A stretch of DNA of 55,915 nt, from positions 80,559-136,473 of the forward strand of contig JABGRV010000006.1 of assembly GCA_018648095.1 (NCBI GenBank). Direction: 5' to 3'. This stretch comes from an archaeon. Lineage in GTDB: Archaea > Nanobdellota > Nanobdellia > Pacearchaeales > GW2011-AR1. The notes beneath the pieces were generated by a model. The model made no database searches. It was not told the origin of the DNA and saw only the letters and a program-made list of their open reading frames with translations. Below are positions 25,748 through 54,141 of the stretch, one piece after another. A program made the translations under genes and the position numbers. Position 1 is the stretch's first letter, and every line of letters starts with the position of its first letter.

Positions 25748-26626
25748 TTAGGAATTATGGACATAAACTGGGTTACTTAACTCCTTAACAAACTTCTTCC
25801 GAACAATTTCATTCTCCTCAATTCTACAATTTCCCCAAGTACCCGGACTTCCCCACGTTTTATCCTTAATCCAGTCCCAATTAATATAACAAAAGGCCTT
25901 GATATGCTTATGATCATGAATCCACTTAAAATATGGCTCAAACCAATCTTTCCAACTCTTTTCACCATCTATAACGCCGACCCCAGCCGCAGTAGATTCT
26001 CCAACCATAACCGGTTTCTTGTGCTTCTTTGCTAACTTCAGAAAATCTTCTACTGGTTTGTATTTCCCAGTTATATGCCTTGCAAAAAAGACATCGATCC
26101 CAAACCAATCAACATAATCATCCCCTGGATAAAATTGTTCAACTGGATCTGTTCCGTTAAATGGACAAGCACACCAAACTGTTGCAATATTTTCAATTTT
26201 GGCTTTTCTAATTTTTTCTACAACATATTTCCATGCTTTTACAAAACTTTTAGGATTGTATTTTCCCTTTTTGTCAAACTCATAACCAATTCTAAGGAAT
26301 GTTGGATTTTTTAGTTCTTTAACAGTATTTAGGAAATCATCAATTTCTTTATCATATTTTCCTTCTAAAATCTCTGGAGTTATATCTCCGTCCCCCTCTG
26401 CTAATAATTTGAAACCAATTTGTAACATAATATTTGGGTAATCTTTCAATTCAATCTTTATCTTGTTTATCCAATGCTCAATCTTTTGAATTTTAGCATA
26501 AGTCATGTAAATCGCAGGTTTGTAATCCTCAACTGCCTTCCAATATTTAGAAAAAGCCTCCGGACTCTGCCCCGCCCCATGAATAACTCGATTCCCCTTA
26601 GGCTCATACTTCTGATTGTAATTCAT
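25748..26626 (-). CDS. glycoside hydrolase, GH26/mannanase-like fold
   Basis: FLRIGYEFDKKG...YPGDDYVDWFGIDVF...VMVGESTAAG matches the GH26-type pattern (catalytic E in the FLR.G.E segment, YPGDDYVD, then a second E in GE). This is moderate support only. Confidence 0.5.
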   Translation of the reverse strand: MNYNQKYEPKGNRVIHGAGQSPEAFSKYWKAVEDYKPAIYMTYAKIQKIEHWINKIKIELKDYPNIMLQIGFKLLAEGDGDITPEILEGKYDKEIDDFLNTVKELKNPTFLRIGYEFDKKGKYNPKSFVKAWKYVVEKIRKAKIENIATVWCACPFNGTDPVEQFYPGDDYVDWFGIDVFFARHITGKYKPVEDFLKLAKKHKKPVMVGESTAAGVGVIDGEKSWKDWFEPYFKWIHDHKHIKAFCYINWDWIKDKTWGSPGTWGNCRIEENEIVRKKFVKELSNPVYVHNS

Positions 26627-26709: not shown

Positions 26710-27735
26710 TTAACTTTTTCTTTTTATGCTAAAAACCCCAGCACAAATTCCAATAGCCAAGAGTCCAATCCCCAAAAATGAACTACCCTTAGGAGCAATT
26801 CCCGCAATTGCATTACCCGTAATTGAAGGAGATAAAAAAGTAATCCCTCCAAGAACTCCCACAATGGCAATCACCCCAGTTAATCGGGAAGTTAATCTAC
26901 TTTTAGAATTAGCTTTTCTTGTCATTCTCTTGGTCCTTAGAGAATCTCCCTTTCCATCATAAACTTCTGCAAGTAACTTGTGGTTTCCTTCCTTTTTCAA
27001 CATATCAAACGCTTTCTCTCCGTACACCCTTAGGGCATCCCTTGGCTTATTCGCTTTTAAGTAGAGTTCTGCTGCTTCTTTCTGATGTTTTTTGGGATCG
27101 CCATGAAACTGAGGGCCGAACCTAATCCTTCCAGACCCTGTATCCCTCGTATGTTTTTGTCGTTCTTCAATATTTGCAACAGATTCAAAATTTTCCGCAG
27201 CCCTTTCATGTTTTCCCAATTCTTTCCAAAGTTCTCCAGCAAGAAGATAGTGTCCTAGTTTTTCACTTTTTTTTGCAGCCTTGGTTAATTCTCCAGATTT
27301 CCTTAGTAGTGAAATACCATGTTCAATTTGTTCCTTGCTTTGTGGATCCTTTAGGAAGTATGAAGCTGCCTTTGACGGGTTATTCATTTCACTTTCATAG
27401 ATTCTTCCCAGCTCCTCATTATCTTTAAGGACCTTATAATCTTTAATTGCTTTTTTGAAATCTCCTAGCTCCTCCCTTATTGCCGCTGCCTTCCTTAATA
27501 GTTTAGGCCTCTCCGCAGTTAAAGGCCCGTCATGAAACATACCCACAAGTCCACTTCTTTTCTCAAGCCCTTTTGCGAGTAACTCTTTTACAGATTTTTG
27601 TGTTCCTTTAGCAAGAAGTCCCTTTTTGTCCAATACATTAGTCAAATAATCTATCTGAGATTCAGTCCCCAAACCCTTTAAGTGAGCCTTAACATCTCCT
27701 TTTTTCATAAATCCTCTCTTAGTACTCTTTTTCAT
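26710..27735 (-). CDS. alpha-helical (TPR-like) repeat protein with a C-terminal TM-hairpin anchor
   Basis: Repetitive helical repeats. The C-terminus is GVIAIVGVLGGITFLSPSITGNAIAGIAPKGSSFLGIGLLAIGICAGVFSIKRKS. Confidence 0.5.
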   Translation of the reverse strand: MKKSTKRGFMKKGDVKAHLKGLGTESQIDYLTNVLDKKGLLAKGTQKSVKELLAKGLEKRSGLVGMFHDGPLTAERPKLLRKAAAIREELGDFKKAIKDYKVLKDNEELGRIYESEMNNPSKAASYFLKDPQSKEQIEHGISLLRKSGELTKAAKKSEKLGHYLLAGELWKELGKHERAAENFESVANIEERQKHTRDTGSGRIRFGPQFHGDPKKHQKEAAELYLKANKPRDALRVYGEKAFDMLKKEGNHKLLAEVYDGKGDSLRTKRMTRKANSKSRLTSRLTGVIAIVGVLGGITFLSPSITGNAIAGIAPKGSSFLGIGLLAIGICAGVFSIKRKS

Positions 27736-32601: not shown

Positions 32602-33666
32602 ATGTCAAAAGATAAACCGTATACAGTGGCTTCCTTTTTTAGTGGTTGTGGTGGTTTTGATCACGGTTTTGAGAAAAATGATTTCTCAGTTTTATTTGGG
32701 AATGATTCGTGGGAGGATGCTGCTACGACATTTAGGGCAAATTATCCGCAAGTTAAATTTTTTGAGAAACCAATTCAAGACATTACTGAAGAAGAATTAG
32801 CAGAGGTTACTAATAACATGCAAGTTGATGTATTAATTGGGGGGCCCCCTTGCCAGTGTTTCACGAGATTAAATAATAATCATCTGATTAAGTTATCTGA
32901 ACTAAAAAAAGAAGACAATAGAAGAACGCTGTCTCAAGAGTATATTAAAAAGGTTAAACTTCTAAAACCAAAGATAGTGTTGATGGAAAATGTAAGGGAC
33001 CTTCTACATAGGAAAAATCAGGAGGGGAAATTATATTCTGAAATAATTCGGGAGGCATTCAAGGAAATTGGATATGAAACTTACTGTAAAATTATCTCCA
33101 TGGATAAGTATGATGTTCCTCAAAAAAGAAAAAGAGTGATTTTTCTAGCCACTAATGTAAAAAGGTTAATGGAATTTCTTGATGAAAATGTTGATAATGG
33201 ATTCCCAAAGGAATCGAATAGGATAATCACTTCCGGAGAAGCCCTAGCTAAAATAAAAGATAATGAAAGTTTAAGTAACCACAATTTTACGATTAATGAA
33301 CCAGAAACTCTAGAGAAAATAAGGAATATCCCCCCAGGAGGTTATTACGAAGATTTACCAGACTCATTAAAAACAAAGAAAATTCGTAATGGGAAGGAAG
33401 TGATAGTAAAAAGATATGGCTCTTATTATCGGAGGTTACATCCGGATGAGCCTTCAAGAACAATAACAAATAATTACGTAATCCACCCAATCAAAGATAG
33501 ATATCTTTCAAATAGGGAAATGGCAATTTTACATAGCTTTCCAAAACAGTATAAATTTAAAGGAAACATGGGCTCAGTATCTCAACAAATTGCAAATGCT
33601 GTTCCGCCAAAATTTGCCGAAAAAATGGCAAAAAGAGTCCAATTTTTATTGGATAATTATTGTTAA
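32602..33666 (+). CDS. DNA (cytosine-5)-methyltransferase
   Basis: Motif I ASFFSGCGGFDHGF, motif IV GGPPCQCFT, motif VI ENV. Confidence 0.85.
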   Translation: MSKDKPYTVASFFSGCGGFDHGFEKNDFSVLFGNDSWEDAATTFRANYPQVKFFEKPIQDITEEELAEVTNNMQVDVLIGGPPCQCFTRLNNNHLIKLSELKKEDNRRTLSQEYIKKVKLLKPKIVLMENVRDLLHRKNQEGKLYSEIIREAFKEIGYETYCKIISMDKYDVPQKRKRVIFLATNVKRLMEFLDENVDNGFPKESNRIITSGEALAKIKDNESLSNHNFTINEPETLEKIRNIPPGGYYEDLPDSLKTKKIRNGKEVIVKRYGSYYRRLHPDEPSRTITNNYVIHPIKDRYLSNREMAILHSFPKQYKFKGNMGSVSQQIANAVPPKFAEKMAKRVQFLLDNYC

Positions 33667-33672
33667 CTTCAA

Positions 33673-34815
33673 ATGGTAGAAAAAAGTTACAAACTGGGAA
33701 AAGAATATATAGATAAGGGCAATCCCAAGTTTGATGAAGATCAATTCATGCGTTGGTTAAATATTAAGAATGTAAGTGGAATGATGAATTCTCCAGGAAT
33801 TCGGTGGTTAAATTATGCGAAGAAAAAAGATCTTCCTGCCGCAATAATATTAATTTCAAAAACTGCTAGCAGTTCATATCATAATCCTTGGGAGGATGTA
33901 ATCGATAGATTGGCAGGTAAGGCATATTACTGGGGGGATTCTAAATATGATCTAAAAAAATCTTGTGAAGACTTCATGGGAAATAAATTACTAAAAAAGG
34001 TCCACGTTAATCTTTTGGAGGGTAATCTTGATAAGATTCCGCCAATTTTACTTTTTTCAAAGCCAGTAAGTGGAAAAATCTTTTTTGAGGGATTGTGCGT
34101 GTTAGAAAATCTTGAAAGAACTTGGTTTGAGGATAAGGGTAAACCTGTTAGAAATTATCGTGCAATACTCCGGATATTGGATACTGAAAAGGTAAAAATT
34201 GAGTGGATACATAACAGAATATATGAAAAAGAATCCGATTCTCCAAGTGCTTGGAAGGACTATTCTTCTGGAAAAACACCCAAATATCTGAAGGTATGGA
34301 ATAAACGATTAAGATCCAAAAATGAACAATTACCTCCAATTAATTCCAATGATGATTTAATTCTAAAGAGAATAAATAGTTTATTATCCCGGGAGTTTGA
34401 GTTTTTTACAGTAAGACTTCTGGAATCTATAAAAGATATAAAGCATGAAATTGTAACTACTCGGGCAGTAAGGGATAAGGGGTTTGATTTCTTTGGGAGA
34501 TTTACATTGCCATACCCCCTAAAATATGAAATAAATTTTAAAGGAGAAGCTAAAAAGTTTGCAAGGTCTAGCGGAGTTGGACCTAAGGAATTATCTCGTT
34601 TAGCAGCAAAACTAACTCGTGGAGAATATGGGATATTCATCACCACATCGTATTATACATTACAAGCGCAGGAAGAATTATTTGAAGATGATTATCCAAT
34701 TAAGTTAATTAGCGGCAACGATATTATTAATTTTTTAAAAGAGTCAAGAATGATAAAGAATAATGCCCTATCTGAAAAAGATCTTTTTAAATTTTTGAAC
34801 CTTAAGCAAGAATGA
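33673..34815 (+). CDS. restriction endonuclease with an Mrr-type catalytic domain (cognate REase candidate)
   Basis: The C-terminus ...DKGFDFFGRF...GEAKKF...EYGIFITTSYYTLQAQEEL resembles the Mrr_cat fold. It lies 7 nt downstream of the C5-methyltransferase. Confidence 0.55.
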   Translation: MVEKSYKLGKEYIDKGNPKFDEDQFMRWLNIKNVSGMMNSPGIRWLNYAKKKDLPAAIILISKTASSSYHNPWEDVIDRLAGKAYYWGDSKYDLKKSCEDFMGNKLLKKVHVNLLEGNLDKIPPILLFSKPVSGKIFFEGLCVLENLERTWFEDKGKPVRNYRAILRILDTEKVKIEWIHNRIYEKESDSPSAWKDYSSGKTPKYLKVWNKRLRSKNEQLPPINSNDDLILKRINSLLSREFEFFTVRLLESIKDIKHEIVTTRAVRDKGFDFFGRFTLPYPLKYEINFKGEAKKFARSSGVGPKELSRLAAKLTRGEYGIFITTSYYTLQAQEELFEDDYPIKLISGNDIINFLKESRMIKNNALSEKDLFKFLNLKQE

Positions 34816-34858
34816 TCACACAGTTAACTATAAATATGGCCATATTTATTACCTGATA

Positions 34859-35599
34859 ATGGAAGACTATGTAGATTTTGAAGATATATTTAAGAATTTA
34901 ATAAATACTCACAAAAAAGACGAAGATTTTGAGTTAATCAAAGACTATCCTGCAATTTTTTCTTTAATTTCAAATATTTCTAGTGATAAGAGTGCGGATG
35001 GGATCACAAAAATGCTTATGAATAGTGCTATTTCATATTTTATCCTTCCAGAAGATATTATTTCTGAGAAAGAGTATGGGGTAAAGGGTTATGTTGATGA
35101 TTTTTTTATTTGCTTACATGTCTTATCGGAATTCTTAAAATATGATTCTAAACTTGGAGAATATTTAATAAATAAATATTGGACCTTAAAAGAGGATTAT
35201 CACAATTATATCTCTAATAAGTATTATGAACTCATGAAGTTAATCGAGGACTCTGTAAGATCTAATATCTTGTTACATTCGGGTGTAAAATATATTGAAG
35301 AACTCATTATGAATAAAAAAAATCCAAGAAAATACCTTGAATTAAAGGGAAGAGATTTACAAAGAAAGATACATTATTTATTTTTCTTATTTCTTAATAG
35401 GCCTATTGGAAATAAAGAGGCAAAGAAGGAATTTGAAAAAAATTTCTTTGGAACTTCAGAGTTCATGGAATTTTCAAAGAAATTGGATCTACTTGAAAAA
35501 GAAGATAATTCTTTTAGTAGGGCTAAAAAAAATGTGGATGAAATGTTTAGTTTAGAAGAAAATATGAAAAATATAAGAATTAGGAGACTTCTTGGATGA
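34859..35599 (+). CDS. DUF1232 (YkvA-like) domain protein
   Basis: YFILPEDIISEKEYGVKGYVDDFFICLHV matches the DUF1232 pattern. Its stop overlaps the next start. Confidence 0.4.
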   Translation: MEDYVDFEDIFKNLINTHKKDEDFELIKDYPAIFSLISNISSDKSADGITKMLMNSAISYFILPEDIISEKEYGVKGYVDDFFICLHVLSEFLKYDSKLGEYLINKYWTLKEDYHNYISNKYYELMKLIEDSVRSNILLHSGVKYIEELIMNKKNPRKYLELKGRDLQRKIHYLFFLFLNRPIGNKEAKKEFEKNFFGTSEFMEFSKKLDLLEKEDNSFSRAKKNVDEMFSLEENMKNIRIRRLLG

Positions 35600-37623
35600 C
35601 TGGTTTAAAAGAATTATCTGATTCAATAGAGAAAATTTATGATTCCGATTCTGAAGACATAACTGAAATAATGAATCTTCTTTTGAAACAATCTATTAGA
35701 TATAGTAGGATCGGAAGCTATTTTTCTTCAAAATCTTTTATTTCATTAGCGGAGGGGTTGGAAGAACTCTTCTTAAAAAACGGAAAGATGAAGTTGATTA
35801 TTAATTATGAATTAAGTAAGGAAGACCATCAGGAGCTAAAGAAGACTTGTGACTACCAGAAAATTGGAGATAGAATAGCATTAGATATTAAAAATCTGAA
35901 ATCTGAAATGGAGTTAAATTCCGCTAAAGTTTTAGCATGGTTAATCTATCAGGGGAAACTTGAGATAAAGGTTGTTCTTGGAAAAGGCAATAACTTAATG
36001 CATATCAAACAAGGGATATTTGAAGATGAATATGGTGACAAAGTGGCATTTACTGGATCTGCAAATGAAACATATTCTGCCTATGAAAAAAATATTGAAC
36101 AAGTAACTTTTTTCAAAGACTGGATAAGTGGGCAGGAGGAATATGTAGGGGAGTTTATTTCCAAATTTAACAAGTTTTGGGATAATTGTGGGGTTGTGGC
36201 TAAAACTTATTCTTTATCAAAAGCTTTTGAGAACGAATTAATGAGAATTCGGCCAAGGACCGAGGCAGAATTAAAAGAATCCCTTCAAATTATTTCTTCC
36301 AAGAATATGTCCACTAAGAAGAAAAAATCACTCACTCCCTATCCCCATCAAGATGCCGCATTACAAGCGTGGTTGAAAAATGACAAGAGGGGCATAATTG
36401 AAATGCCTACTGGTTGTGGAAAGACCAAAACTGCCCTATTTGCTTTTAGAAAAGCTATAAAATCTGGAAAGAGCGCTACTTTTATCTTTGCTCCAACAAA
36501 GGCCATTTGTAATCAATGGATAGAGGAATTTGAAGGAGAACCTTGCAAAATTTGCAAAATTTATGATAATCCAAATTGGAAAAGAGATTTAAAGAAAAAT
36601 ATTTTGGATTTAAAACTGGGAGTATTTGAGAATCTTGTTGTAGTCGGAAGCTATGCACTAATAACTTCCAAAGTTCTTATCGAAGAAATTAGAACTTTGA
36701 CAGAATTTAACAAGTTTTTAATTGCAGATGAAGCTCATTCTACCGGGGCACTGAAGACCTCCGGGGGTTTAATAGAAGATTATAATTTTCGCCTGGCCTT
36801 AAGCGCTACTCCCAAAAGATATCTTGATGAGGACGGAACAAATAGAGTTTTTGATTTTTTTGGAGGGGTAGTTTATGACAAAATAGGATTATATGAGGCA
36901 ATTTATTCCTTGGGGGTGCTTTGTGAGTATGAGTATCATTTAATTCAAGTTTTTTTAAATGAAGAAGAAATGGCCCAATATTCCAAGCTGACAAAATTAT
37001 TAATTATGAAGGTTTCTATGAAATCGAAAGATAAGTACAATACAAATCTTGACTCAGAAATTCAAAGGCTTGCAGAAAAAAGGGCAAAGATTATAAAAAA
37101 TTGCTCTGCTAAACTAGACAAGCTTCCAGAGATAGTAGAAGAAATTAAAGAAGATAAGTCTATTATTTTCGTTTCTCCGAAACAACGGGAGGAGGTATTG
37201 AAGATAGTCAGAAATAGAATAAAATACCACCAATATACTTATTCTGAGGATACGGAAGTAAGATCTAGGGCCCTTGAAAATTTTAAAGAAGGAAAAATAC
37301 AGGCCTTAGTTGCAATAAAATGTCTTGATGAAGGTTTAGATGTGCCTGCTGCAAGGGCAGGAGTTATTATGGCAAGTTCTGGAAATCCCCGGGAGTTTAT
37401 TCAAAGGAGGGGCAGGCTTTTAAGAAAACATCCCAATAAAAAATATGCAAAGATTTTTGATTTTTTTGTAACTCCCTCTAAGGAGGCTATTAGCTCTTCG
37501 GAGATGTATAAAAATCAGATATCCAAAGAATTAAAAAGAATAACCGAGTTTGCAAAATCTGCTAGAAATGAAATAAAGGTATCGAAAGAATTAAAAGAGT
37601 TAAAATCTAAATTAGGCCTATGA
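35596..37623 (+). CDS. PLD-family (HKD) nuclease fused to an SF2 DEAH helicase
   Basis: HKD-type motif HIKQGIFEDEYGDKVAFTGSANET. Helicase motifs MPTGCGKT (I), IADEAHS (II), LSATP (III), QRRGRLLR (VI). Confidence 0.7.
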   Translation: MTGLKELSDSIEKIYDSDSEDITEIMNLLLKQSIRYSRIGSYFSSKSFISLAEGLEELFLKNGKMKLIINYELSKEDHQELKKTCDYQKIGDRIALDIKNLKSEMELNSAKVLAWLIYQGKLEIKVVLGKGNNLMHIKQGIFEDEYGDKVAFTGSANETYSAYEKNIEQVTFFKDWISGQEEYVGEFISKFNKFWDNCGVVAKTYSLSKAFENELMRIRPRTEAELKESLQIISSKNMSTKKKKSLTPYPHQDAALQAWLKNDKRGIIEMPTGCGKTKTALFAFRKAIKSGKSATFIFAPTKAICNQWIEEFEGEPCKICKIYDNPNWKRDLKKNILDLKLGVFENLVVVGSYALITSKVLIEEIRTLTEFNKFLIADEAHSTGALKTSGGLIEDYNFRLALSATPKRYLDEDGTNRVFDFFGGVVYDKIGLYEAIYSLGVLCEYEYHLIQVFLNEEEMAQYSKLTKLLIMKVSMKSKDKYNTNLDSEIQRLAEKRAKIIKNCSAKLDKLPEIVEEIKEDKSIIFVSPKQREEVLKIVRNRIKYHQYTYSEDTEVRSRALENFKEGKIQALVAIKCLDEGLDVPAARAGVIMASSGNPREFIQRRGRLLRKHPNKKYAKIFDFFVTPSKEAISSSEMYKNQISKELKRITEFAKSARNEIKVSKELKELKSKLGL

Positions 37624-37790
37624 ACGAGTTAAAAAAATTAGTAAATAAGGCGGTTCTTGAAAAAATACCCCTTTCAGAAGATCGGGAGGCACTTTTAGAA
37701 GCAATAAGTATTGAAGAAACTTTTGGTGGGTTAAAATCTACAGATCTATTAGATAAATATGAAAAAATTATAGAGGGACTTATAAAATGA
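37620..37790 (+). CDS. unannotated 56-aa ORF translationally coupled on both sides (MNELKKLVNKAVLEKIPLSEDREALLEA...)
   Basis: ATGA overlaps at both ends: 37620-37623 with the helicase stop and 37787-37790 with the ATPase start. Confidence 0.35.
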   Translation: MNELKKLVNKAVLEKIPLSEDREALLEAISIEETFGGLKSTDLLDKYEKIIEGLIK

Positions 37791-39781
37791 AGTTAAACAA
37801 AATTATAATTGAGAATTATCGGGGCTATTATGGTAAAAATGAGATCGAGTTTAATAATGGAGAAAAGGGAAAACATATAGATTTGATAATAGCACGTAAT
37901 GATACCGGAAAAACTACTTTTTTAAACGCTATCTATTGGTGTCTTTATGGTAAGGAACAATTCTATAATTCAAAAAATAGCAATCAAAGAGTTATGTCCA
38001 ATAAAAAGATTATTGAGACTCCAATTGGAGAAAAATTGAATTTTTCAGTCACACTAGTATTTAGTGATGATAAGGGTCCAAAGGTGGAGATAACTCGTCA
38101 GCGGATATTTAAGAGGGCCAGGGATGAAGATAACGATCTAAAAATTATTCAGGATGGAGAAGATAGATTTTTTGGAATGGAAATTAATAAGAAAGGAACG
38201 GGTTTTGAAAAGATTAATTACCTTGAGAACTTCATATCTTCCCAAATTCCTGAAGGGATAAGCCCTTTCTTTCTTTTAGATGGTGAACAGCTCAAAGCAA
38301 TATTTACTTCCGATATTAATTATAAAATAAAAGATGCCATTGAAAAAGTAGCTAACATAAAATCGATAAATGGTCTAATCGAAAATTTATCACGCTTAGA
38401 TCGCAATTATTCTAGTATGAAATCAGGTATAGATCCGAATTATGGGGCCATACAGGCAAGGATAGATAAGGCAGATGCCACCATCACAAAGACTAAGGCC
38501 GATTTAGAAGAATGGATGAAAGAAAAAGAATCATTAAAGAAACAAATCTCTGAACTTGATGATTATCTCCAGAACCACAATGAGACAGTAGTGAGGGAAC
38601 TAGGAGCAAGGGAACAAAATTTAAGGGGAACTATAGGGCGGGCAGATGAGGATCGTAAGGAATCCGAGGAAAAATTGAATAATATGGTAATCAAGGCCTA
38701 TATTCTAAAAATTGGGAAAAAGAGCCTTTTAGAAACAAGCGATAAGTTTAATGAGATCATTGAGGGGGGGAATTTTCCTCCTGCGGTAGATCCCTCACAT
38801 GTATTACAACTTATTAAGAGGAGAGAATGTATCTGTGGTACAAAAATATCAAAAAATTCTGAAGAAGAAGAAAAACTTAAGAAACTCGCAGATACCAAGA
38901 GTTTTAAAGAATATGTTAGAATAATCTCCCAAGGAGATGCCCAGCTCCCACAGATGATTGAATCTATAAAATCCCTTGTGGGCGATATATCGGTAGAAAG
39001 AAAGAAAGTGTATGGGCATGAGGCACTAATTAAAGATAGTAAAAAGGAGATAGATGAAATTACCTTAAAGTTAAAATCCTCCGACGTGGAAGAAATCCGT
39101 AATAAGGGAGAAGAAAAAGAAATGTTGGAAAGAGAAATTACTCGTAAGGAGGGAGATATCCATCGCGCAGAGGGAGATTTAGATGTTTTAAATATTTCTA
39201 AAAAAGATGATGCCTCTAAATTGAATAGCATAAAGATAAAAGAACTTAAAGATAAACTTCTCATCCAAAAATCAGAAAAATGTAAACAACTTATAACTTA
39301 CTCTAAGGAAATAAAAGAATCAATAATGAAAACTATAAAGGATAAAATAGAAGAATCTACTGCCAAAAACTTCGTAGATCTTCATTGGAAGGCAGAGGAT
39401 TATGAAAAGGTAAGTATCTTAGATGATTTTTCTCTTTCGGTAAGAGATAAATATCGTGGAGAGTTAATCAATGAACTTTCCCAGGGTGCAGCATTATGTT
39501 TTGGTCTTGCTTTTATGACCGCACTTAGGAATTATTCAGGATATGATGTCCCAGTAATAATCGATTCTCCGGTGGGAAAAATAGATGAGGGAAATAGAGA
39601 AAAGATTGCAAAGAGTTTACCTGAACAATTAAAGGGAAAGCAAGTAATCTTCTTAGTTACTAGCTCCGAATACACCTCAGTATTTAAGAAATTTCTTGAC
39701 GACAAAATTTCGACAAAAATTTCGTTAACTTATAATAAAAAAACTGGAGAAATAGACATAGACAATAATGGCAGCGATTGA
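37787..39781 (+). CDS. SMC-like ABC ATPase (AAA_23/DndD/SbcC-like)
   Basis: N-terminal Walker A ARNDTGKTTFLNAIYWCLYG. A long coiled-coil middle follows. C-terminal signature LSQGAALCFGLAF and D-loop VPVIIDSPVGKIDEGN. Confidence 0.7.
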   Translation: MKLNKIIIENYRGYYGKNEIEFNNGEKGKHIDLIIARNDTGKTTFLNAIYWCLYGKEQFYNSKNSNQRVMSNKKIIETPIGEKLNFSVTLVFSDDKGPKVEITRQRIFKRARDEDNDLKIIQDGEDRFFGMEINKKGTGFEKINYLENFISSQIPEGISPFFLLDGEQLKAIFTSDINYKIKDAIEKVANIKSINGLIENLSRLDRNYSSMKSGIDPNYGAIQARIDKADATITKTKADLEEWMKEKESLKKQISELDDYLQNHNETVVRELGAREQNLRGTIGRADEDRKESEEKLNNMVIKAYILKIGKKSLLETSDKFNEIIEGGNFPPAVDPSHVLQLIKRRECICGTKISKNSEEEEKLKKLADTKSFKEYVRIISQGDAQLPQMIESIKSLVGDISVERKKVYGHEALIKDSKKEIDEITLKLKSSDVEEIRNKGEEKEMLEREITRKEGDIHRAEGDLDVLNISKKDDASKLNSIKIKELKDKLLIQKSEKCKQLITYSKEIKESIMKTIKDKIEESTAKNFVDLHWKAEDYEKVSILDDFSLSVRDKYRGELINELSQGAALCFGLAFMTALRNYSGYDVPVIIDSPVGKIDEGNREKIAKSLPEQLKGKQVIFLVTSSEYTSVFKKFLDDKISTKISLTYNKKTGEIDIDNNGSD

Positions 39782-43754: not shown

Positions 43755-44969
43755 TTGAGAATGAAAAAATCCCCATCACTAAACACCACACCCCAATCAC
43801 CAACACAAGCCAACATAAAAAAATTCTACTGGTTTAGTTTTCTTAAGGAATGGATCTTCTGGGTTCCAGTAGTTGTACTATTCTGGCAGGCGAATGGATT
43901 AAGCCTGACCGAAATCATGGTTTTACAATCATTATATGCGATATCTGTAGTTCTATTAGAAGTCCCAACAGGAGTTGTTGCAGATAAAGTTGGACGAAAA
44001 CAAAGTCTAGCTTTAGGAAGTATATTTGTGATATTCGGTTTTATAGCATACTTTTTGGGATATAATTTCTGGCAATTTTTTGGGGCAGAATTTTTACTTG
44101 CAGTCGGTACGGGTTTTATGTCCGGGGCAGATTCAGCATTTGTTTTTGATTCCTTAAAGCAAGATAAGAAAGAAAGTAATTTCAAGAGAGTATGGGGAAG
44201 TGCCAAGTCTTGGGGATATTTTGCCGCAGCAATAACTAGTATCCTTGGAGGATTCATAGCAACTTACAGCTTGAGACTAACCTGGCTACCAACAATTTTC
44301 GGAATGGTAATCTTATTCTTTGTAACTCTAAGCTTCACCGAGCCAAAACACTATAAGAAAGTCGCACAAACTCAATCATATCTTCAACATACTTGGGAAA
44401 GCATAAAGGAATCATTTACTAACAAAAATTTACTATTCCTTCTACTATTCTATTCTATTTTGACGCTTTTTGCTAGAGTAAGCCTATGGTTTTATCAGCC
44501 CTACATGAATGAATCCGGTTTACCTCTTGTTTACTTCGGAATTGTTTGGGCAAGTTTCAATATATTTGCGATCGGAGGAAGTAAATCTGCCAATAGATTA
44601 GAGGGATGGCTTGGCGAAAGAGGAAGTTTATGGTTTATGATAATTGCTATGTTCTTGAGTTTAATATTCATGAGTTATTGGTTTGCAATTTTCGGAATGG
44701 CCTTCATTTTCCTACAGCAATTCGTTAGAGGTTTTTCTCCACCAGTTCTACAAGATTATACTCATAAGCATTTAAGTTCTGAAAAGAGGGCAACACTATT
44801 ATCTGTTCAAAGTATGGTTGCGAACTTGCTCTTCGCAGTTCTCGCACCAGTATATGGTTTCCTTGCAGATAAATTTTCACTGAGCACCGCATTATTAATC
44901 GCAGGAATTAGTTGTCTTGCAGCATTTTCTGTTCTGATGTTATGGGGCCGGATGCGGGGGAGAAATTAA
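43755..44969 (+). CDS. MFS transporter
   Basis: About 12 TM segments. MFS signature GVVADKVGRKQSL between TM2 and TM3. Confidence 0.75.
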   Translation: MRMKKSPSLNTTPQSPTQANIKKFYWFSFLKEWIFWVPVVVLFWQANGLSLTEIMVLQSLYAISVVLLEVPTGVVADKVGRKQSLALGSIFVIFGFIAYFLGYNFWQFFGAEFLLAVGTGFMSGADSAFVFDSLKQDKKESNFKRVWGSAKSWGYFAAAITSILGGFIATYSLRLTWLPTIFGMVILFFVTLSFTEPKHYKKVAQTQSYLQHTWESIKESFTNKNLLFLLLFYSILTLFARVSLWFYQPYMNESGLPLVYFGIVWASFNIFAIGGSKSANRLEGWLGERGSLWFMIIAMFLSLIFMSYWFAIFGMAFIFLQQFVRGFSPPVLQDYTHKHLSSEKRATLLSVQSMVANLLFAVLAPVYGFLADKFSLSTALLIAGISCLAAFSVLMLWGRMRGRN

Positions 44970-45925
44970 TGTTAACTAAAACAGACCTCGCCTCAATCCT
45001 CTCCGCCTACGACCTCGGCACCTTCATCTCCCTAGGAAATATAGTAAAAAACGATCAAGTCTCCCTTGCCCAAATCATCCAAACAACCAAAGGCAAGATC
45101 TTCATGAAAGTATTACGGGAATTCACCACCGCAAACAAACAAGGCCTTGAAGTCATGCACCAATTACGCCAAAAGAACTTCCCCGTATTCTCAGTTCACA
45201 AAACAAAGAAAGGCAAACTTTACACAAAATACAAGGGAATGCCCATAGCCTTCTTCGAATACGTTAAGATCAAGGAAAACATGGAATGGATTCCACTAAA
45301 CAAAAGCAAGATAACAGAATACGCAAAATATCTAGCCAAATTCCACAGGCTAACAAAAAACATGAAACTTAAATCAGTAGATGCTGGAAACTTCAAAAGC
45401 ATCCGGGCACTGATCAAAAAATATTACAAGAAAAGGAGAATGTATTCTCCGAGATATCAAGCTGTTCTCGCATATCTGAATAATGAGATTGATGGACTTA
45501 AATGCCCTAAGAAAGAATACTCCACCGGATACTTCTCAGAGTTCAATCCTGGCCACGTCATCTTCTCAGGAAATAAGTTGAAATGGGTTCTCGATTGGGA
45601 AATCGGACACGATAATGCATTCTATGACTTTGCAAGCTCAATGGTTGCTTGCTTTTCCCTCAATAAACCGGATCTCTCCTATGAAAAGCTTAAGGAGTAC
45701 ATCAAAAGCTATGATAAAGTAAGGAAACTCAGCAAGTGGGAAAAAGATCATATTTACGAGGCACTAAAGTTCGGCTGTTTTAAGTATGGGGTCTGGGAAT
45801 TCGCAGATATTGAAACTGGCGGCATGAAGAAGGAGAAGGATCTTGACTTGGAAGGGATTAGACGAGTGGAGTTCTTTATGAGTATGGGAAGGAAAGAAGA
45901 ATTTTTGAAGGAGTTGAAAAAATGA
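44969..45925 (+). CDS. phosphotransferase-family kinase (APH/ChoK-like)
   Basis: FNPGHVIFSGNKLKWVLDWEIG is a Brenner/APH-like catalytic segment (H.D..N...IDWE). The start ATG overlaps the MFS stop (TAATG). Confidence 0.55.
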   Translation: MLTKTDLASILSAYDLGTFISLGNIVKNDQVSLAQIIQTTKGKIFMKVLREFTTANKQGLEVMHQLRQKNFPVFSVHKTKKGKLYTKYKGMPIAFFEYVKIKENMEWIPLNKSKITEYAKYLAKFHRLTKNMKLKSVDAGNFKSIRALIKKYYKKRRMYSPRYQAVLAYLNNEIDGLKCPKKEYSTGYFSEFNPGHVIFSGNKLKWVLDWEIGHDNAFYDFASSMVACFSLNKPDLSYEKLKEYIKSYDKVRKLSKWEKDHIYEALKFGCFKYGVWEFADIETGGMKKEKDLDLEGIRRVEFFMSMGRKEEFLKELKK

Positions 45926-46920
45926 AAATAAGAAAACTAAAGAATACAAAAAGGGGAACGGAAATTAATTATGCTACCCTCCCCATTGAAGAAGCAAGAG
46001 TCGTTAATGGAACTACATTAAGGGCCGATCTTGAAAGATTTTATGGTCCTTCCGCCAATTATAGTAAATTAGCTGAAGAAATTCGGGAAGTATCCCAACA
46101 TCCTGAAAGAACTCGGAAAAGGGAAGGAGTACCAATAGAGGATTCAAAAAGGAACCCTGAAGAAGATGGGAGAGATTACTTAACAATCAGAGTAATTGGT
46201 AAAAAATCTCCAAGGATAGTTTTAACTCCCACACCTTTTGTTCATGAAATTTGGTTTGGTCGGAAGGATGGTAAAAGTGTGGGTACGTCAAACAGATTTG
46301 GAACGCTTAAAGGGATTCTTAAAAAAGGATTTGATGCTTATGCTGATGATGGTAACGTTATATCAAAAAGAAACAAGGGACATCGTTTTAGTTGGGGTAA
46401 ATTCCTCCCAAACAAAGAAGAAGGAATAACAAATGGGGATTTTTACAGTATTGAGCTTTACTCGGATAAAGGGATTGATTCTGGAGATAAGTTCCTGGGT
46501 GAACCTGCATATTCCCTCCATAAATCAAAACCCGAGAGAATTTTATCTGTGAACATTGCCCTCAATCCAGATTCTACGGAAGCAGATAAAGAAAAAAAGA
46601 TGGAATTTTATAAAAAAGAGATAGCTGAAAATTATAACGTGCCTGCAAGATTTTTTGAATCAAATTGGGGAACAGATAAATTTGGAAGAAAAGTTTCTAG
46701 AATTGAAAAAAGGATTCATCCCAAAGAGATTTCACTAGAACAAAAGCTGACCCCTATTCTCGCTATTGGGGGACTTATTGCCGGAATTATTCTTATTTCT
46801 CCAAATATGACTGGGAATGCAATTGGAAATCTTACAAATTCAACTTCCAATATAATTGGCGGGGCTTTGTTTGTTGCAGGGATTGTGGGAAGTTTCCTTT
46901 GGTTTAAGAAAAGAAATTGA
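45922..46920 (+). CDS. hypothetical surface protein with a C-terminal TM-hairpin anchor (TGNAI module)
   Basis: C-terminus ILAIGGLIAGIILISPNMTGNAIGNLTNSTSNIIGGALFVAGIVGSFLWFKKRN. Confidence 0.45.
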   Translation: MKIRKLKNTKRGTEINYATLPIEEARVVNGTTLRADLERFYGPSANYSKLAEEIREVSQHPERTRKREGVPIEDSKRNPEEDGRDYLTIRVIGKKSPRIVLTPTPFVHEIWFGRKDGKSVGTSNRFGTLKGILKKGFDAYADDGNVISKRNKGHRFSWGKFLPNKEEGITNGDFYSIELYSDKGIDSGDKFLGEPAYSLHKSKPERILSVNIALNPDSTEADKEKKMEFYKKEIAENYNVPARFFESNWGTDKFGRKVSRIEKRIHPKEISLEQKLTPILAIGGLIAGIILISPNMTGNAIGNLTNSTSNIIGGALFVAGIVGSFLWFKKRN

Positions 46921-46977: not shown

Positions 46978-47196
46978 ATGGTAAAATGGAGATATGTTTT
47001 GGCGGGGATTATTTTATGGATAGCCATGCCATTCGCTTACAGAAATGATGCCATCAGGGGATTTCTTTATGACATATTCCGAGGATCAACGACTACTGCA
47101 ATGTATCTAATGGGAATAATCGGATTCGCTTTGATAATTGTGGGGTTCTTTATGAGTTCTAAGAAGACTGAAAAAGTTGTGAAAAATGCTAAATAA
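46978..47196 (+). CDS. small two-TM membrane protein (72 aa)
   Basis: ORF track. Confidence 0.35.
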   Translation: MVKWRYVLAGIILWIAMPFAYRNDAIRGFLYDIFRGSTTTAMYLMGIIGFALIIVGFFMSSKKTEKVVKNAK

Positions 47197-48115
47197 ATCC
47201 CAATTCAAAACAATTCTCTCCACCTACCCAATCGGAGAATACAAAGAACACAAATACCTCGAAGATGTATTCGAGAACGACGTTTACATCCTGAAAACGA
47301 CCAAAGGGAAATACATTCTGAAAGTTCTAAGAAATATCAAGGTCGGCGACATGAAGGAACAACTTGAACTGATAGACTTCTTATATTCTAAAGGCTTGCC
47401 TGTTGTGAAGAACATTAAAGATCGGAAGGGAAGGGAAATTTCGAAACATGGCGGGAAATGGTTACTAATTCAGGGTTTTGTCGAAGGAACTTGCGAACAG
47501 GATTTTGATAAGAAGCTTGTTAAGAACATCGCAGGACATGTTGGTAAAATGCACAAGATTTTGTTGAAGTCTAAGTTTGGAGTTCAGAGAAAGAAAGACC
47601 ATGTATACAAGAAAAGAAATCTCAGTTCAATAAAGAAACACGGCTTAGACAAAATCCAAAACGAACTCTTTAAGGAATTGAATGAAAGAATTGATAGATC
47701 TAAATTGAAAAAAGCCAGAATTCACAGCGATCTAACTAATGTGAATCTCTTGATAAAAGATAACAAGTTGAATGCAATTATTGATTGGGATGATTCCGAT
47801 TATGATTATCTAGTTTATGAAATCGCCATATTTCTTGCACATAGTTGCGTGAGGGGTAAGCAGATCCACCGGGGTAAAATAAAGATCTTCATGAAGGAAT
47901 ATCAGAAGCATGTGAAGTTAAACGAGGAAGAGAAAAAGGCGATCTATTTCCTCATGAAGTACAGGCTATTTGGCATCCTTAATTGGTATCTTAAATATAT
48001 TAAGTCTCATTCTGAGAGAAAAGAGATGCTAGAGCGAGGGATAAAAAGGAGTGTTCGAAGAATATTGAAGTTCGAGAAGGTTGGTGTTGAAGATTTTTTA
48101 GAGAAATGTTTTTAA
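47186..48115 (+). CDS. phosphotransferase-family kinase (APH/ChoK-like), second copy
   Basis: IHSDLTNVNLLIKDNKLNAIIDWDDS is an APH catalytic loop (H.D....N ... IDWD). Confidence 0.6.
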   Translation: MLNKSQFKTILSTYPIGEYKEHKYLEDVFENDVYILKTTKGKYILKVLRNIKVGDMKEQLELIDFLYSKGLPVVKNIKDRKGREISKHGGKWLLIQGFVEGTCEQDFDKKLVKNIAGHVGKMHKILLKSKFGVQRKKDHVYKKRNLSSIKKHGLDKIQNELFKELNERIDRSKLKKARIHSDLTNVNLLIKDNKLNAIIDWDDSDYDYLVYEIAIFLAHSCVRGKQIHRGKIKIFMKEYQKHVKLNEEEKKAIYFLMKYRLFGILNWYLKYIKSHSERKEMLERGIKRSVRRILKFEKVGVEDFLEKCF

Positions 48116-53256: not shown

Positions 53257-54141
53257 TTACAATCCCATACCGCAAGCAACCTTTTGCTCTGCCGTTAAAT
53301 CCTTAATATCTTCCAAATTGAAAACTTGGCTACAGCATCCTGATCTCGCCCAATCCATATTTACTTTCTTACATAGCTCTGGGTCATTTTTTCTTATAGC
53401 AAAATCACTATAACATGAGCTTCGGGCATAACTCCCATCAAGGGGCCCATCATTAAGATATTTATCGCAAAAAGATTCATCCTCCTGTGTACGAGCATAT
53501 GCGAGATAACAGCTTTCACTTATCCACGCTCTTTCACAGATTGTAGGATCTCCTGCAGCAAAAGCCCTCTCGAAGTAGCAGCCTTCATCCCCAGTTAAAC
53601 AAAAACCATTATAGTAAAATTTACCAAAACCAATCAATAATGCTAAGATAATCAGGGCAACAAGAAGTATTGCTGTTCCTTTCCCACGTAAGGAAAAGTA
53701 GACCCAAGAAAATAAGCTAGAAAATATTATTCCAATGACAAAATATGCTGCGATAAAGCCAGTTATCATAAAATATGCCATAGCAGATTCTCCGGAGCAG
53801 ATACCCCTACAAGGAATCATCATAAGCCCATTAAGAAGAACCGCTAGTGCAATTGAGGATATCAATAAAAAATATAAATTTCTCGAAAAGGCTATTTTCC
53901 CTGATTGACGTTCTTTTGATTTTATTGTATTATACGAAGTTATTGAAAATATTATGAATATTGGAATTGGAAACATGAGGGCGGTCCCGAAGAGTCGACT
54001 GACTTCTCTGAATCCACTTACACTAAAAAAACCAACCAAGAGAAATATGCAAAATGTTAAAAGATAAAATCCAGCCCCCCATAAAACTGACTCTAGCAAA
54101 ATCTTCCCCCTACTTTTCACCTGAACTTCTTCTTGATCCAT
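53257..54141 (-). CDS. polytopic membrane protein with a C-terminal Cys-rich domain
   Basis: About 6 TM helices, then a ~110-aa domain with about 10 Cys. It is convergent with the peptide genes. Confidence 0.5.
   Translation of the reverse strand: MDQEEVQVKSRGKILLESVLWGAGFYLLTFCIFLLVGFFSVSGFREVSRLFGTALMFPIPIFIIFSITSYNTIKSKERQSGKIAFSRNLYFLLISSIALAVLLNGLMMIPCRGICSGESAMAYFMITGFIAAYFVIGIIFSSLFSWVYFSLRGKGTAILLVALIILALLIGFGKFYYNGFCLTGDEGCYFERAFAAGDPTICERAWISESCYLAYARTQEDESFCDKYLNDGPLDGSYARSSCYSDFAIRKNDPELCKKVNMDWARSGCCSQVFNLEDIKDLTAEQKVACGMGL

Follow-up and report, generated by a model that had tools for sequence, protein, structure and literature searches.

Two genes in the archaeal DNA stretch analysed here (contig JABGRV010000006.1, 55,915 nucleotides, G+C 35.6%; hereafter the window) encode proteins that end in the same unit of about 60 residues, which we call the hairpin module: a first transmembrane helix (TM1), a polar loop with a T-G-N-A-I motif, a second transmembrane helix (TM2) and a short tail of lysines and arginines. 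We consider it rather probable, on the sequence data, that this module is a retained two-helix hairpin membrane anchor, which would hold a variety of cytoplasmic domains at the inner membrane face. This reading is the best supported one because the cargo, formed by the N-terminal domains (N-domains), is not exported, conservation in both helices is position-specific, and forms of the module without any cargo occur as well.

The shared C-terminus of the two window proteins

Both open reading frames (ORFs) are present exactly as the first-pass annotation of the window, made from the sequence alone, had described them. Their features, with the evidence in brackets, are the following (AF2, AlphaFold 2; pLDDT, its predicted local distance difference test score).

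26710..27735, minus strand: gene 1 (protein 1, 341 aa), with a conserved head, a predicted TPR-like alpha-solenoid and the hairpin module; no signal peptide (ORF; weak TPR/SNAP Pfam matches; AF2; PDB fold matches; N-domain cluster)
26713..26901, minus strand: hairpin module of protein 1, residues 279-341, including the basic juxtamembrane SRLTSR (hmmsearch with the module profile, 79.5 bits, E 1.4e-23; alignments)
26833..26883, minus strand: predicted TM1 of protein 1, L285-L301, LTGVIAIVGVLGGITFL, with small-residue positions G293/G296/G297 (hydrophobic segment; register from the family consensus; AF2 helix 265-301)
26779..26832, minus strand: predicted exoplasmic loop of protein 1, S302-S319, SPSITGNAIAGIAPKGSS, with SPSITGNAI at 26806-26832 and no N-x-S/T sequon (motif scan; family alignment)
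26725..26778, minus strand: predicted TM2 of protein 1, F320-I337, FLGIGLLAIGICAGVFSI, with conserved G322, L325 and G329 (family alignment; hydrophobicity; AF2 helix 319-340)
26713..26724, minus strand: predicted basic cytoplasmic tail KRKS of protein 1, stop codon at 26710-26712 (ORF; charge count)
45922..46920, plus strand: gene 2 (protein 2, 332 aa), with an N-domain that has no Pfam match, then the hairpin module; no signal peptide (ORF; Pfam search)
46729..46917, plus strand: hairpin module of protein 2, residues 270-332, including the juxtamembrane SLEQK (87.3 bits, E 5.6e-26; AF2 helix-loop-helix, pLDDT 75)
46747..46797, plus strand: predicted TM1 of protein 2, L276-I292, LTPILAIGGLIAGIILI (family alignment; AF2; hydrophobicity)
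46798..46851, plus strand: predicted exoplasmic loop of protein 2, S293-N310, SPNMTGNAIGNLTNSTSN, with the motif at 46798-46824 and N-x-T sequons at N295, N303 and N306 (motif scan; family alignment)
46852..46905, plus strand: predicted TM2 of protein 2, I311-F328, IIGGALFVAGIVGSFLWF (family alignment; AF2; hydrophobicity)
46906..46917, plus strand: predicted basic cytoplasmic tail KKRN of protein 2, stop codon at 46918-46920 (ORF; charge count)

The two C-termini (...RLTGVIAIVGVLGGITFLSPSITGNAIAGIAPKGSSFLGIGLLAIGICAGVFSIKRKS in protein 1 and ...LTPILAIGGLIAGIILISPNMTGNAIGNLTNSTSNIIGGALFVAGIVGSFLWFKKRN in protein 2) have a common order, in which a Gly-rich hydrophobic helix leads into S-P-[S/N]-[I/M]-T-G-N-A-I, and then come some nine polar residues, another Gly-rich helix and the K/R tail. 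A six-frame scan of the window for SP.[IM]TGNAI returned two sites only, 26806-26832 on the minus strand and 46798-46824 on the plus strand. BLASTP of the two proteins gave a single C-terminal high-scoring segment pair (146 columns, 27% identity, E 5e-11), the identities of which crowd into the last 60 residues or so, and the N-domains aligned alone showed no similarity (best E 2.2). The first-pass claim that one tripartite C-terminal unit sits on two unrelated proteins is therefore borne out. That annotation would have given the motif up had only these two proteins carried it or had they been paralogs over their full length; the module is widespread and the N-domains are unrelated.

A further first-pass suggestion, that the similarity of the underlying DNA points to module shuffling, fails for the window. 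The module DNA of the two copies is 48% identical over 189 nt and 38% identical at third codon positions, the same codon is used in 8 of 21 identical residues, and the longest common DNA word has 10 nt. The DNA likeness of the two copies is no more than the conserved peptide imposes; therefore recent shuffling at the DNA level is rejected for this pair, and the likeness is no sign of it in this genome.

Distribution of the module

A word-indexed search with the two window modules alone gave 45 candidates, none of them significant, and a 12-sequence profile was needed before such a search returned family members. Its yield was confined to proteins of 48-112 aa, some of them fragments at contig ends (P0001 = L018), a bias that was removed by an exhaustive HMMER search, in which the module profile A3 (67 sequences) was run against 1.84 billion cluster representatives. 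This search matched 2,810 cluster representatives at E<=1e-3, including 1,579 at E<=1e-10. Since 2,810 cluster representatives carry this ungapped module, the C-terminal match between proteins 1 and 2 is, as judged by the profile, far beyond chance. Among the best 150 of these 2,810 matches (proteins of 67-379 aa) the match ends no more than about 20 residues from the C-terminus in all cases, and the module also closes its ORF in the DNA loci that were fetched.

The genomes in which module loci are named belong to Candidatus Woesearchaeota (5), Nanoarchaeota (2), "archaeon" (2) and Pacearchaeota; the NCBI record of protein 2 is likewise filed under "archaeon", and the exact sequence of protein 1 is recorded in 38 contig-index blocks (23 of which were read), for example ENA ERZ4200966 and JGI 3300003496. 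The genes beside module loci are archaeal and include RadA, eRF1, NAC and RNA polymerase subunit L. Two module genes occur at one locus in the window and at L008, L012/L036 and L026. Judged from the profile matches, the module is a new uncurated domain family, which is widespread in DPANN archaea.

The only bacterial attribution concerns L011 (VGLO01000091.1, the same as L035), a 2.3-kb contig in a metagenome-assembled genome of Candidatus Staskawiczbacteria; it probably reflects mis-binning, not a genuine occurrence in the candidate phyla radiation. No recurrent neighbour gene was seen in three Pfam-annotated neighbourhoods and the window. One locus (L037) is flanked by glycosyltransferases, an arrangement that does not recur among the loci.

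Anatomy and conservation of the hairpin

For a position-wise description, 241 non-redundant module sequences were anchored on the T-G dipeptide, with T as position 0. The core of the module, from about -13 to +32, aligns in a single ungapped register across all 241. Its consensus begins with the basic juxtamembrane stretch K-K-x-G-L-E-x-K (often G-L-E-x-K) and continues with x-x-x-I-A-I-x-G-L-L-G-G-L-F-F-L in TM1, S-P-N-I-T-G-N-A-I-G-N-L-T-N-S-T-S-N in the 18-residue loop, I-I-G-A-V-L-L-V-I-G-L-V-G-G-F-F-W-F in TM2 and K-K-K in the tail. The best conserved positions at the end of TM1 and in the loop are F at -6 (92%), L at -5 (91%), S at -4 (93%), N at -2 (88%), T at 0 (98%), G at +1 (100%), N at +2 (95%) and I at +4 (86%), followed in TM2 by G at +16 (87%), L at +19 (80%) and G at +23 (82%). 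Conservation of Gly and Phe is position-specific in both TM1 and TM2, with recurrent small residues at -13/-9 in TM1 and at +16/+23/+26-27 in TM2; in our reading of their spacing, the small residues of each helix fall on one helical face.

The median distance from the motif to the C-terminus is 36 residues, TM1 ending about 40 and TM2 about 4 residues before it. The AF2 model of the module alignment (mean pLDDT 75) comprises a helix at 3-23, a short turn helix, a coil over T-G-N-A-I-G-N-L and a helix at 37-62. A core that is free of insertions and deletions, together with position-specific conservation in both helices, is the pattern that a retained folded unit should show and a disposable anchor should not.

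Topology

By the established positive-inside rule, the distribution of basic residues can be used to place the N-domain and the tail relative to the membrane. K+R amount to 4.1 per protein in the 15 residues before TM1, to 0.24 in the 18-residue loop and to 3.5 in the tail after TM2; the loop and both helices are nearly uncharged, K+R and D+E each being at most 0.01 per residue in the transmembrane segments. The 193 N-domains of at least 19 residues are all devoid of a hydrophobic 19-residue window (Kyte-Doolittle > 1.6) and of a signal-peptide-like core within residues 1-35; a signal peptide is also absent from both window proteins. These data indicate an N-in/C-in topology, in which the N-domain and the C-terminal tail are cytoplasmic and the loop alone is outside. 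Proteins 1 and 2 would therefore not be surface proteins, which is what the first-pass annotation had called them.

The loop and its sequons

N-x-S/T sequons number 1.96 per 18-residue loop, as compared with 1.08 +/- 0.05 (maximum 1.24) in composition-matched shuffles, and their density is 0.109 per residue in the loops versus 0.0042 in the N-domains, i.e. 26 times higher. They occupy fixed offsets, at -2 in 88% of sequences, at +6 in 54% and at +9 in 27%. At least one sequon is found in 93% of the loops, and 17 of the 241 family members have none. The loop of protein 2 carries the three sequons listed above, that of protein 1 none. We reasonably suppose that the loop is probably N-glycosylated; this modification cannot be essential, since protein 1 is devoid of a sequon.

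N-domains, modularity and stand-alone forms

BLAST clustering at E<=1e-4 sorts the 156 N-domains of at least 50 residues into 67 clusters, and 44 of these have a single member. By this clustering, the module is fused to at least 67 unrelated N-domains. It also occurs without cargo, in mini-proteins of 66-80 aa with K-rich ends, and genuine stand-alone genes are represented by stop-to-stop frames of 71 codons (L039) and 80 codons (L041), both inside long contigs.

The N-domain of protein 1 belongs to the largest cluster (36 members), in which a conserved head is followed by a middle part of variable length and by the module. The head, about 45 residues in alignment A5, reads M-x-K-K-E-S-A-K-R-G-Y-M-T-x-E-E-V-x-x-H-L and continues ... 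Y-L-x-x-I-L-x-K-x-K-L-L-x-x-x-T; the TPR-like middle before the hairpin is of very variable length. The AF2 model of protein 1 (pLDDT 83) is an all-alpha solenoid that runs via a long helix (265-301) into TM1. Its top Foldseek matches in the PDB are almost all TPR proteins (E 3e-4 to 1e-2) with low TM-scores (0.17-0.37), and in Pfam the SNAP model matches with 27.8 bits (cutoff 25), individual TPR models staying below their cutoffs. The predicted structure thus has a helical-repeat fold like that of solved TPR proteins, and the model presents the N-domain as a TPR-like alpha-solenoid. The N-domain cluster of protein 2 has four members (including P0118, P0164 and P0208) and no Pfam match; used as a search query, this N-domain returned only protein 2 itself.

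One visible route to new fusions and mini-proteins is shown by L026:7656-9995, a tandem duplication of about 1.0 kb (86-93% identity) with its left breakpoint inside the hairpin module. The first copy holds a 224-aa fusion gene followed by a 185-aa gene with two transmembrane segments, and in the second, 1 kb further along, a 76-aa gene for the module alone precedes a 198-aa paralogue.

Two other N-domain clusters may resemble enzymes. In one, all eight members (P0092, P0088, P0125, P0137, P0157, P0161, P0176 and P0205) carry an H-T-H ... P-S-x-x-D pattern similar to the signature of JAMM/MPN+ metalloproteases, with S replaced by G in one member and by A in another; the pattern is also present in L004:3395-4162. 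The cluster has no Pfam match even at E<=0.1, and the phosphoribosyltransferase-like look of the other cluster has no Pfam support at this threshold either, so that both are kept as leads only.

Genes around the two loci in the window

Gene 2 is flanked by APH/homoserine-kinase-like genes at 44912-45925 and 47186-48115, and its start overlaps the upstream stop by 4 nt; the segment 44912-48115 may be an operon. Gene 2 is followed by a 72-aa small membrane protein (46978-47196) without the TGNAI motif, in which a Kyte-Doolittle scan finds one hydrophobic stretch and our own reading two. Immediately downstream of gene 1 lies a gene of glycoside hydrolase family 26 (Pfam; 25748-26626) with no obvious N-terminal signal peptide. 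A run of defence-type genes at 32602-39781 includes an AspBHI-N/Mrr-like restriction endonuclease (33673-34815), a PLD-nuclease/ResIII-helicase fusion (35596-37623) and an AAA_23/AAA_15 ATPase (37787-39781). The window also encodes an L10e-size ribosomal protein L16/L10e, a TrmB regulator and an AsnC-type regulator, as well as a 294-aa protein (53257-54141) with about five transmembrane segments and a Cys-rich C-terminal domain; the latter was considered as a candidate processing enzyme and set aside, having no Pfam or NCBIfam match.

Curated families and sorting-signal models

Pfam-A holds no model for the module, and 149 full-length members give only scattered TPR matches; at E<=1 the 67 module sequences touch 114 different Pfam families, which is the noise level. 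In NCBI the exact protein 2 is named "DUF308 domain-containing protein [archaeon]". The DUF308 model (PF03729) matches neither window protein; it touches 1 of the 149 full-length members at E 2e-5 and 4 of the 67 module sequences at E>=0.009, short of the gathering score. The label is therefore unsupported by the Pfam model and looks like a transmembrane false positive. The module has no match among PDB sequences (best E 0.27), PHROGs (including holin families) or IMG/VR viral contigs. A literature search on the motif strings returned nothing relevant, and the module is unmentioned in the DPANN and archaeal-surface literature looked at.

With the curated NCBIfam sorting-signal hidden Markov models, PGF-CTERM gave no match, Loki-CTERM reached 10.8-11 bits (cutoff 19.9), GG_III-CTERM 11.1 bits (cutoff 22), and PEP-CTERM touched 2 of 67 members at E>=0.38, below cutoff. 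All CTERM models thus stayed below their cutoffs, and the first-pass statement that the motif matches neither PGF-CTERM nor PEP-CTERM holds. LPXTG_anchor (TIGR01167) touches 26 of 67 members (best E 4e-5); in protein 2 the isolated 63-aa module scores 16.9 bits (cutoff 15.9) and the full-length protein 11 bits. These alignments always cover profile positions 8/9-34, i.e. the helix and basic tail, and never the LPXTG motif. As in LPXTG signals (TIGR01167 / PF00746), a hydrophobic helix and a basic tail, here TM2 and the K/R residues, stand at the extreme C-terminus, but S-P-N-I-T-G corresponds to P-x-x-T-G, not P-x-T-G, and neither the Sec cargo with a signal peptide that belongs to LPXTG signals nor the Sec/Tat-exported cargo of CTERM signals was found among the 193 N-domains.

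Proposed function and alternative explanations

In the anchor model that we favour, the N-terminal domains would be made in the cytoplasm and kept there, and the hairpin would insert N-in/C-in, with the 18-residue loop alone exposed outside. Insertion is probably post-translational, in the manner of tail-anchored (TA) proteins or via a YidC/Oxa1-type insertase, because the module ends the protein and TM2 leaves the ribosome only after termination. The conserved small residues may pack TM1 against TM2, and possibly hairpin against hairpin, while the N-x-S/T sites of the loop would probably be N-glycosylated by AglB, locking the topology and displaying a glycan. As an outcome, dozens of unrelated cytoplasmic domains would be held at the inner membrane face of Woese-, Pace- and Nanoarchaeota, the tethered domain in protein 1 being a putative TPR-like scaffold.

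Several points weigh against this model. The topology is deduced from the positive-inside rule and the lack of signal peptides, and the position of the module in full-length proteins was inspected for the best 150 of the 2,810 matches. The sequons are separated from the predicted membrane boundaries by only 2-8 residues, perhaps too short a distance for the oligosaccharyltransferase, and 7% of the members, protein 1 among them, have none. T0 and G+1 are better conserved than the sequon Asn, and therefore a further constraint, beyond what glycosylation can account for, should act on the loop. There is also a weak resemblance between the tail half of the module and LPXTG anchors. The loop is conserved beyond the needs of a passive anchor, which points to a possible partner or enzyme, and this near-invariance is the clearest sign in the alignment that the module may do more than anchor passively. 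Along this line, we regard as improbable, though worth stating, that the module is a DPANN-specific coupling or sorting device acting on N-in proteins: a post-translationally inserted hairpin with its outer loop P-N-I-T-G-N serving as the substrate of a dedicated enzyme or partner, where T|G transpeptidation or dense glycan attachment could take place.

Another explanation, unlikely but carrying more weight than the coupling device, is that the hairpin is a self-assembling unit that forms rings, patches or pores via its Gly faces, like proteolipids or class II holins, and so clusters the N-domains, the mini-proteins being the building block. It would account for the stand-alone proteins with K-rich ends, for small residues spaced i/i+4 in TM1 and i/i+7 in TM2, for conservation far above what a simple anchor needs, and for the loci with several module genes; however, there is no conserved charged or polar residue within the helices, hence nothing that points to an ion or pore function, and PHROG holin families, PDB chains and viral contigs yielded no match. 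A chance or low-complexity likeness of two Gly-rich transmembrane tails could be imagined, since such segments draw weak scattered matches of the kind seen with the 114 Pfam families, but it is refuted to practical certainty by 1,579 clusters at E<=1e-10 among 1.8 billion proteins and by the ungapped register with its near-invariant polar loop.

It is also improbable, slightly more so than for the coupling device, that the module is a new cleavable sorting signal, cut in or near P-N-I-T-G by a sortase-, archaeosortase- or rhomboid-type enzyme, with TM2 and the tail removed and the new C-terminus joined to lipid, glycan or cell wall. The tripartite build of the last 36 residues (T-G motif, spacer, hydrophobic helix, basic tail), the nearly invariant T-G dipeptide and the LPXTG_anchor matches, that of the protein 2 module above cutoff, speak for it. 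Tripartite C-terminal sorting signals are, however, defined on Sec substrates and their C-terminal helix is a temporary anchor only (PMC6098224), and the cargo requirement of this definition fails in 193 of 193 N-domains. The TIGR01167 alignments leave out the LPXTG motif, and the P-x-x-T-G motif directly abuts TM1. TM2, which cleavage would remove, shows position-specific conservation that one would not expect in such a segment, and cargo-less mini-proteins exist. The CTERM models gave no match above cutoff, and no sortase-like, archaeosortase or rhomboid gene was seen in the 56-kb window or the Pfam-annotated neighbourhoods. Of the first-pass proposal of a C-terminal sorting or anchoring signal, what stands is the modular, widespread C-terminal unit; its processing by an archaeosortase or exosortase is disfavoured by the lack of Sec cargo, the conservation of both helices and the cargo-less forms.

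Most DPANN genes have no assigned function, and the cell envelope and host contact are regarded as central to the biology of these archaea. If the anchor model is right, a single recognisable unit of 60 residues, found in no fewer than 2,800 sequence clusters, would put dozens of otherwise unannotatable soluble domains at the inner membrane face and would give a localisation call for thousands of hypothetical proteins. The module is a candidate for a new Pfam/NCBIfam family, which would correct the misleading "DUF308" label. It offers a defined system for C-terminal hairpin insertion in archaea and lets the N-glycosylation of very short loops be tested. If the loop were an enzyme substrate or docking site, a new mechanism of envelope coupling would be at hand, and cytoplasmic scaffolds could be linked covalently or specifically to the envelope, the S-layer or the site of host contact.

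Comparison with known systems

DUF308/HdeD proteins and the module have in common Gly-rich pairs of transmembrane helices of about 60-70 residues, although in the former these are tandem repeats forming polytopic proteins, whereas the module is a single C-terminal hairpin on soluble domains. The stand-alone module is similar to the ATP-synthase c-subunit/proteolipid and to class II holins in size, hairpin layout, Gly-rich packing faces and short polar loop, as general knowledge of these proteins suggests; it differs from them in that a conserved intramembrane carboxylate is missing, neither sequence nor PHROG searches give a match, and fusions to large cytoplasmic domains are frequent.

In the module, as in tripartite sorting signals, a short conserved motif lies outside the membrane and precedes a hydrophobic helix and a basic tail that forms the C-terminus, and one element occurs on many unrelated proteins of a genome. 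Unlike these signals, the module follows cargo that is not exported, places the motif after a first transmembrane helix, has a motif region that fits no curated motif or model, occurs without cargo, and keeps the helix after the motif conserved position by position.

A close parallel in layout is provided by TA proteins (Get3/TRC40- or YidC-type clients), which, like the module proteins, have no N-terminal signal, a cytoplasmic functional domain and a C-terminal anchor, one anchor type being found on many unrelated domains; with the anchor at the C-terminus, insertion should be largely post-translational. TA proteins possess a single transmembrane segment, few luminal residues and no conserved sequence, whereas the module has two segments, a conserved outer loop of 18 residues and a cytoplasmic basic tail, and is a homologous domain and not a physicochemical class. 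Measured against the definition of TA proteins, the absence of an N-terminal signal and the cytosolic N-domain agree, and the single transmembrane segment within about 30 C-terminal residues does not. In its predicted topology, the module is thus a hairpin variant of tail anchoring and not a strict member of the TA class.

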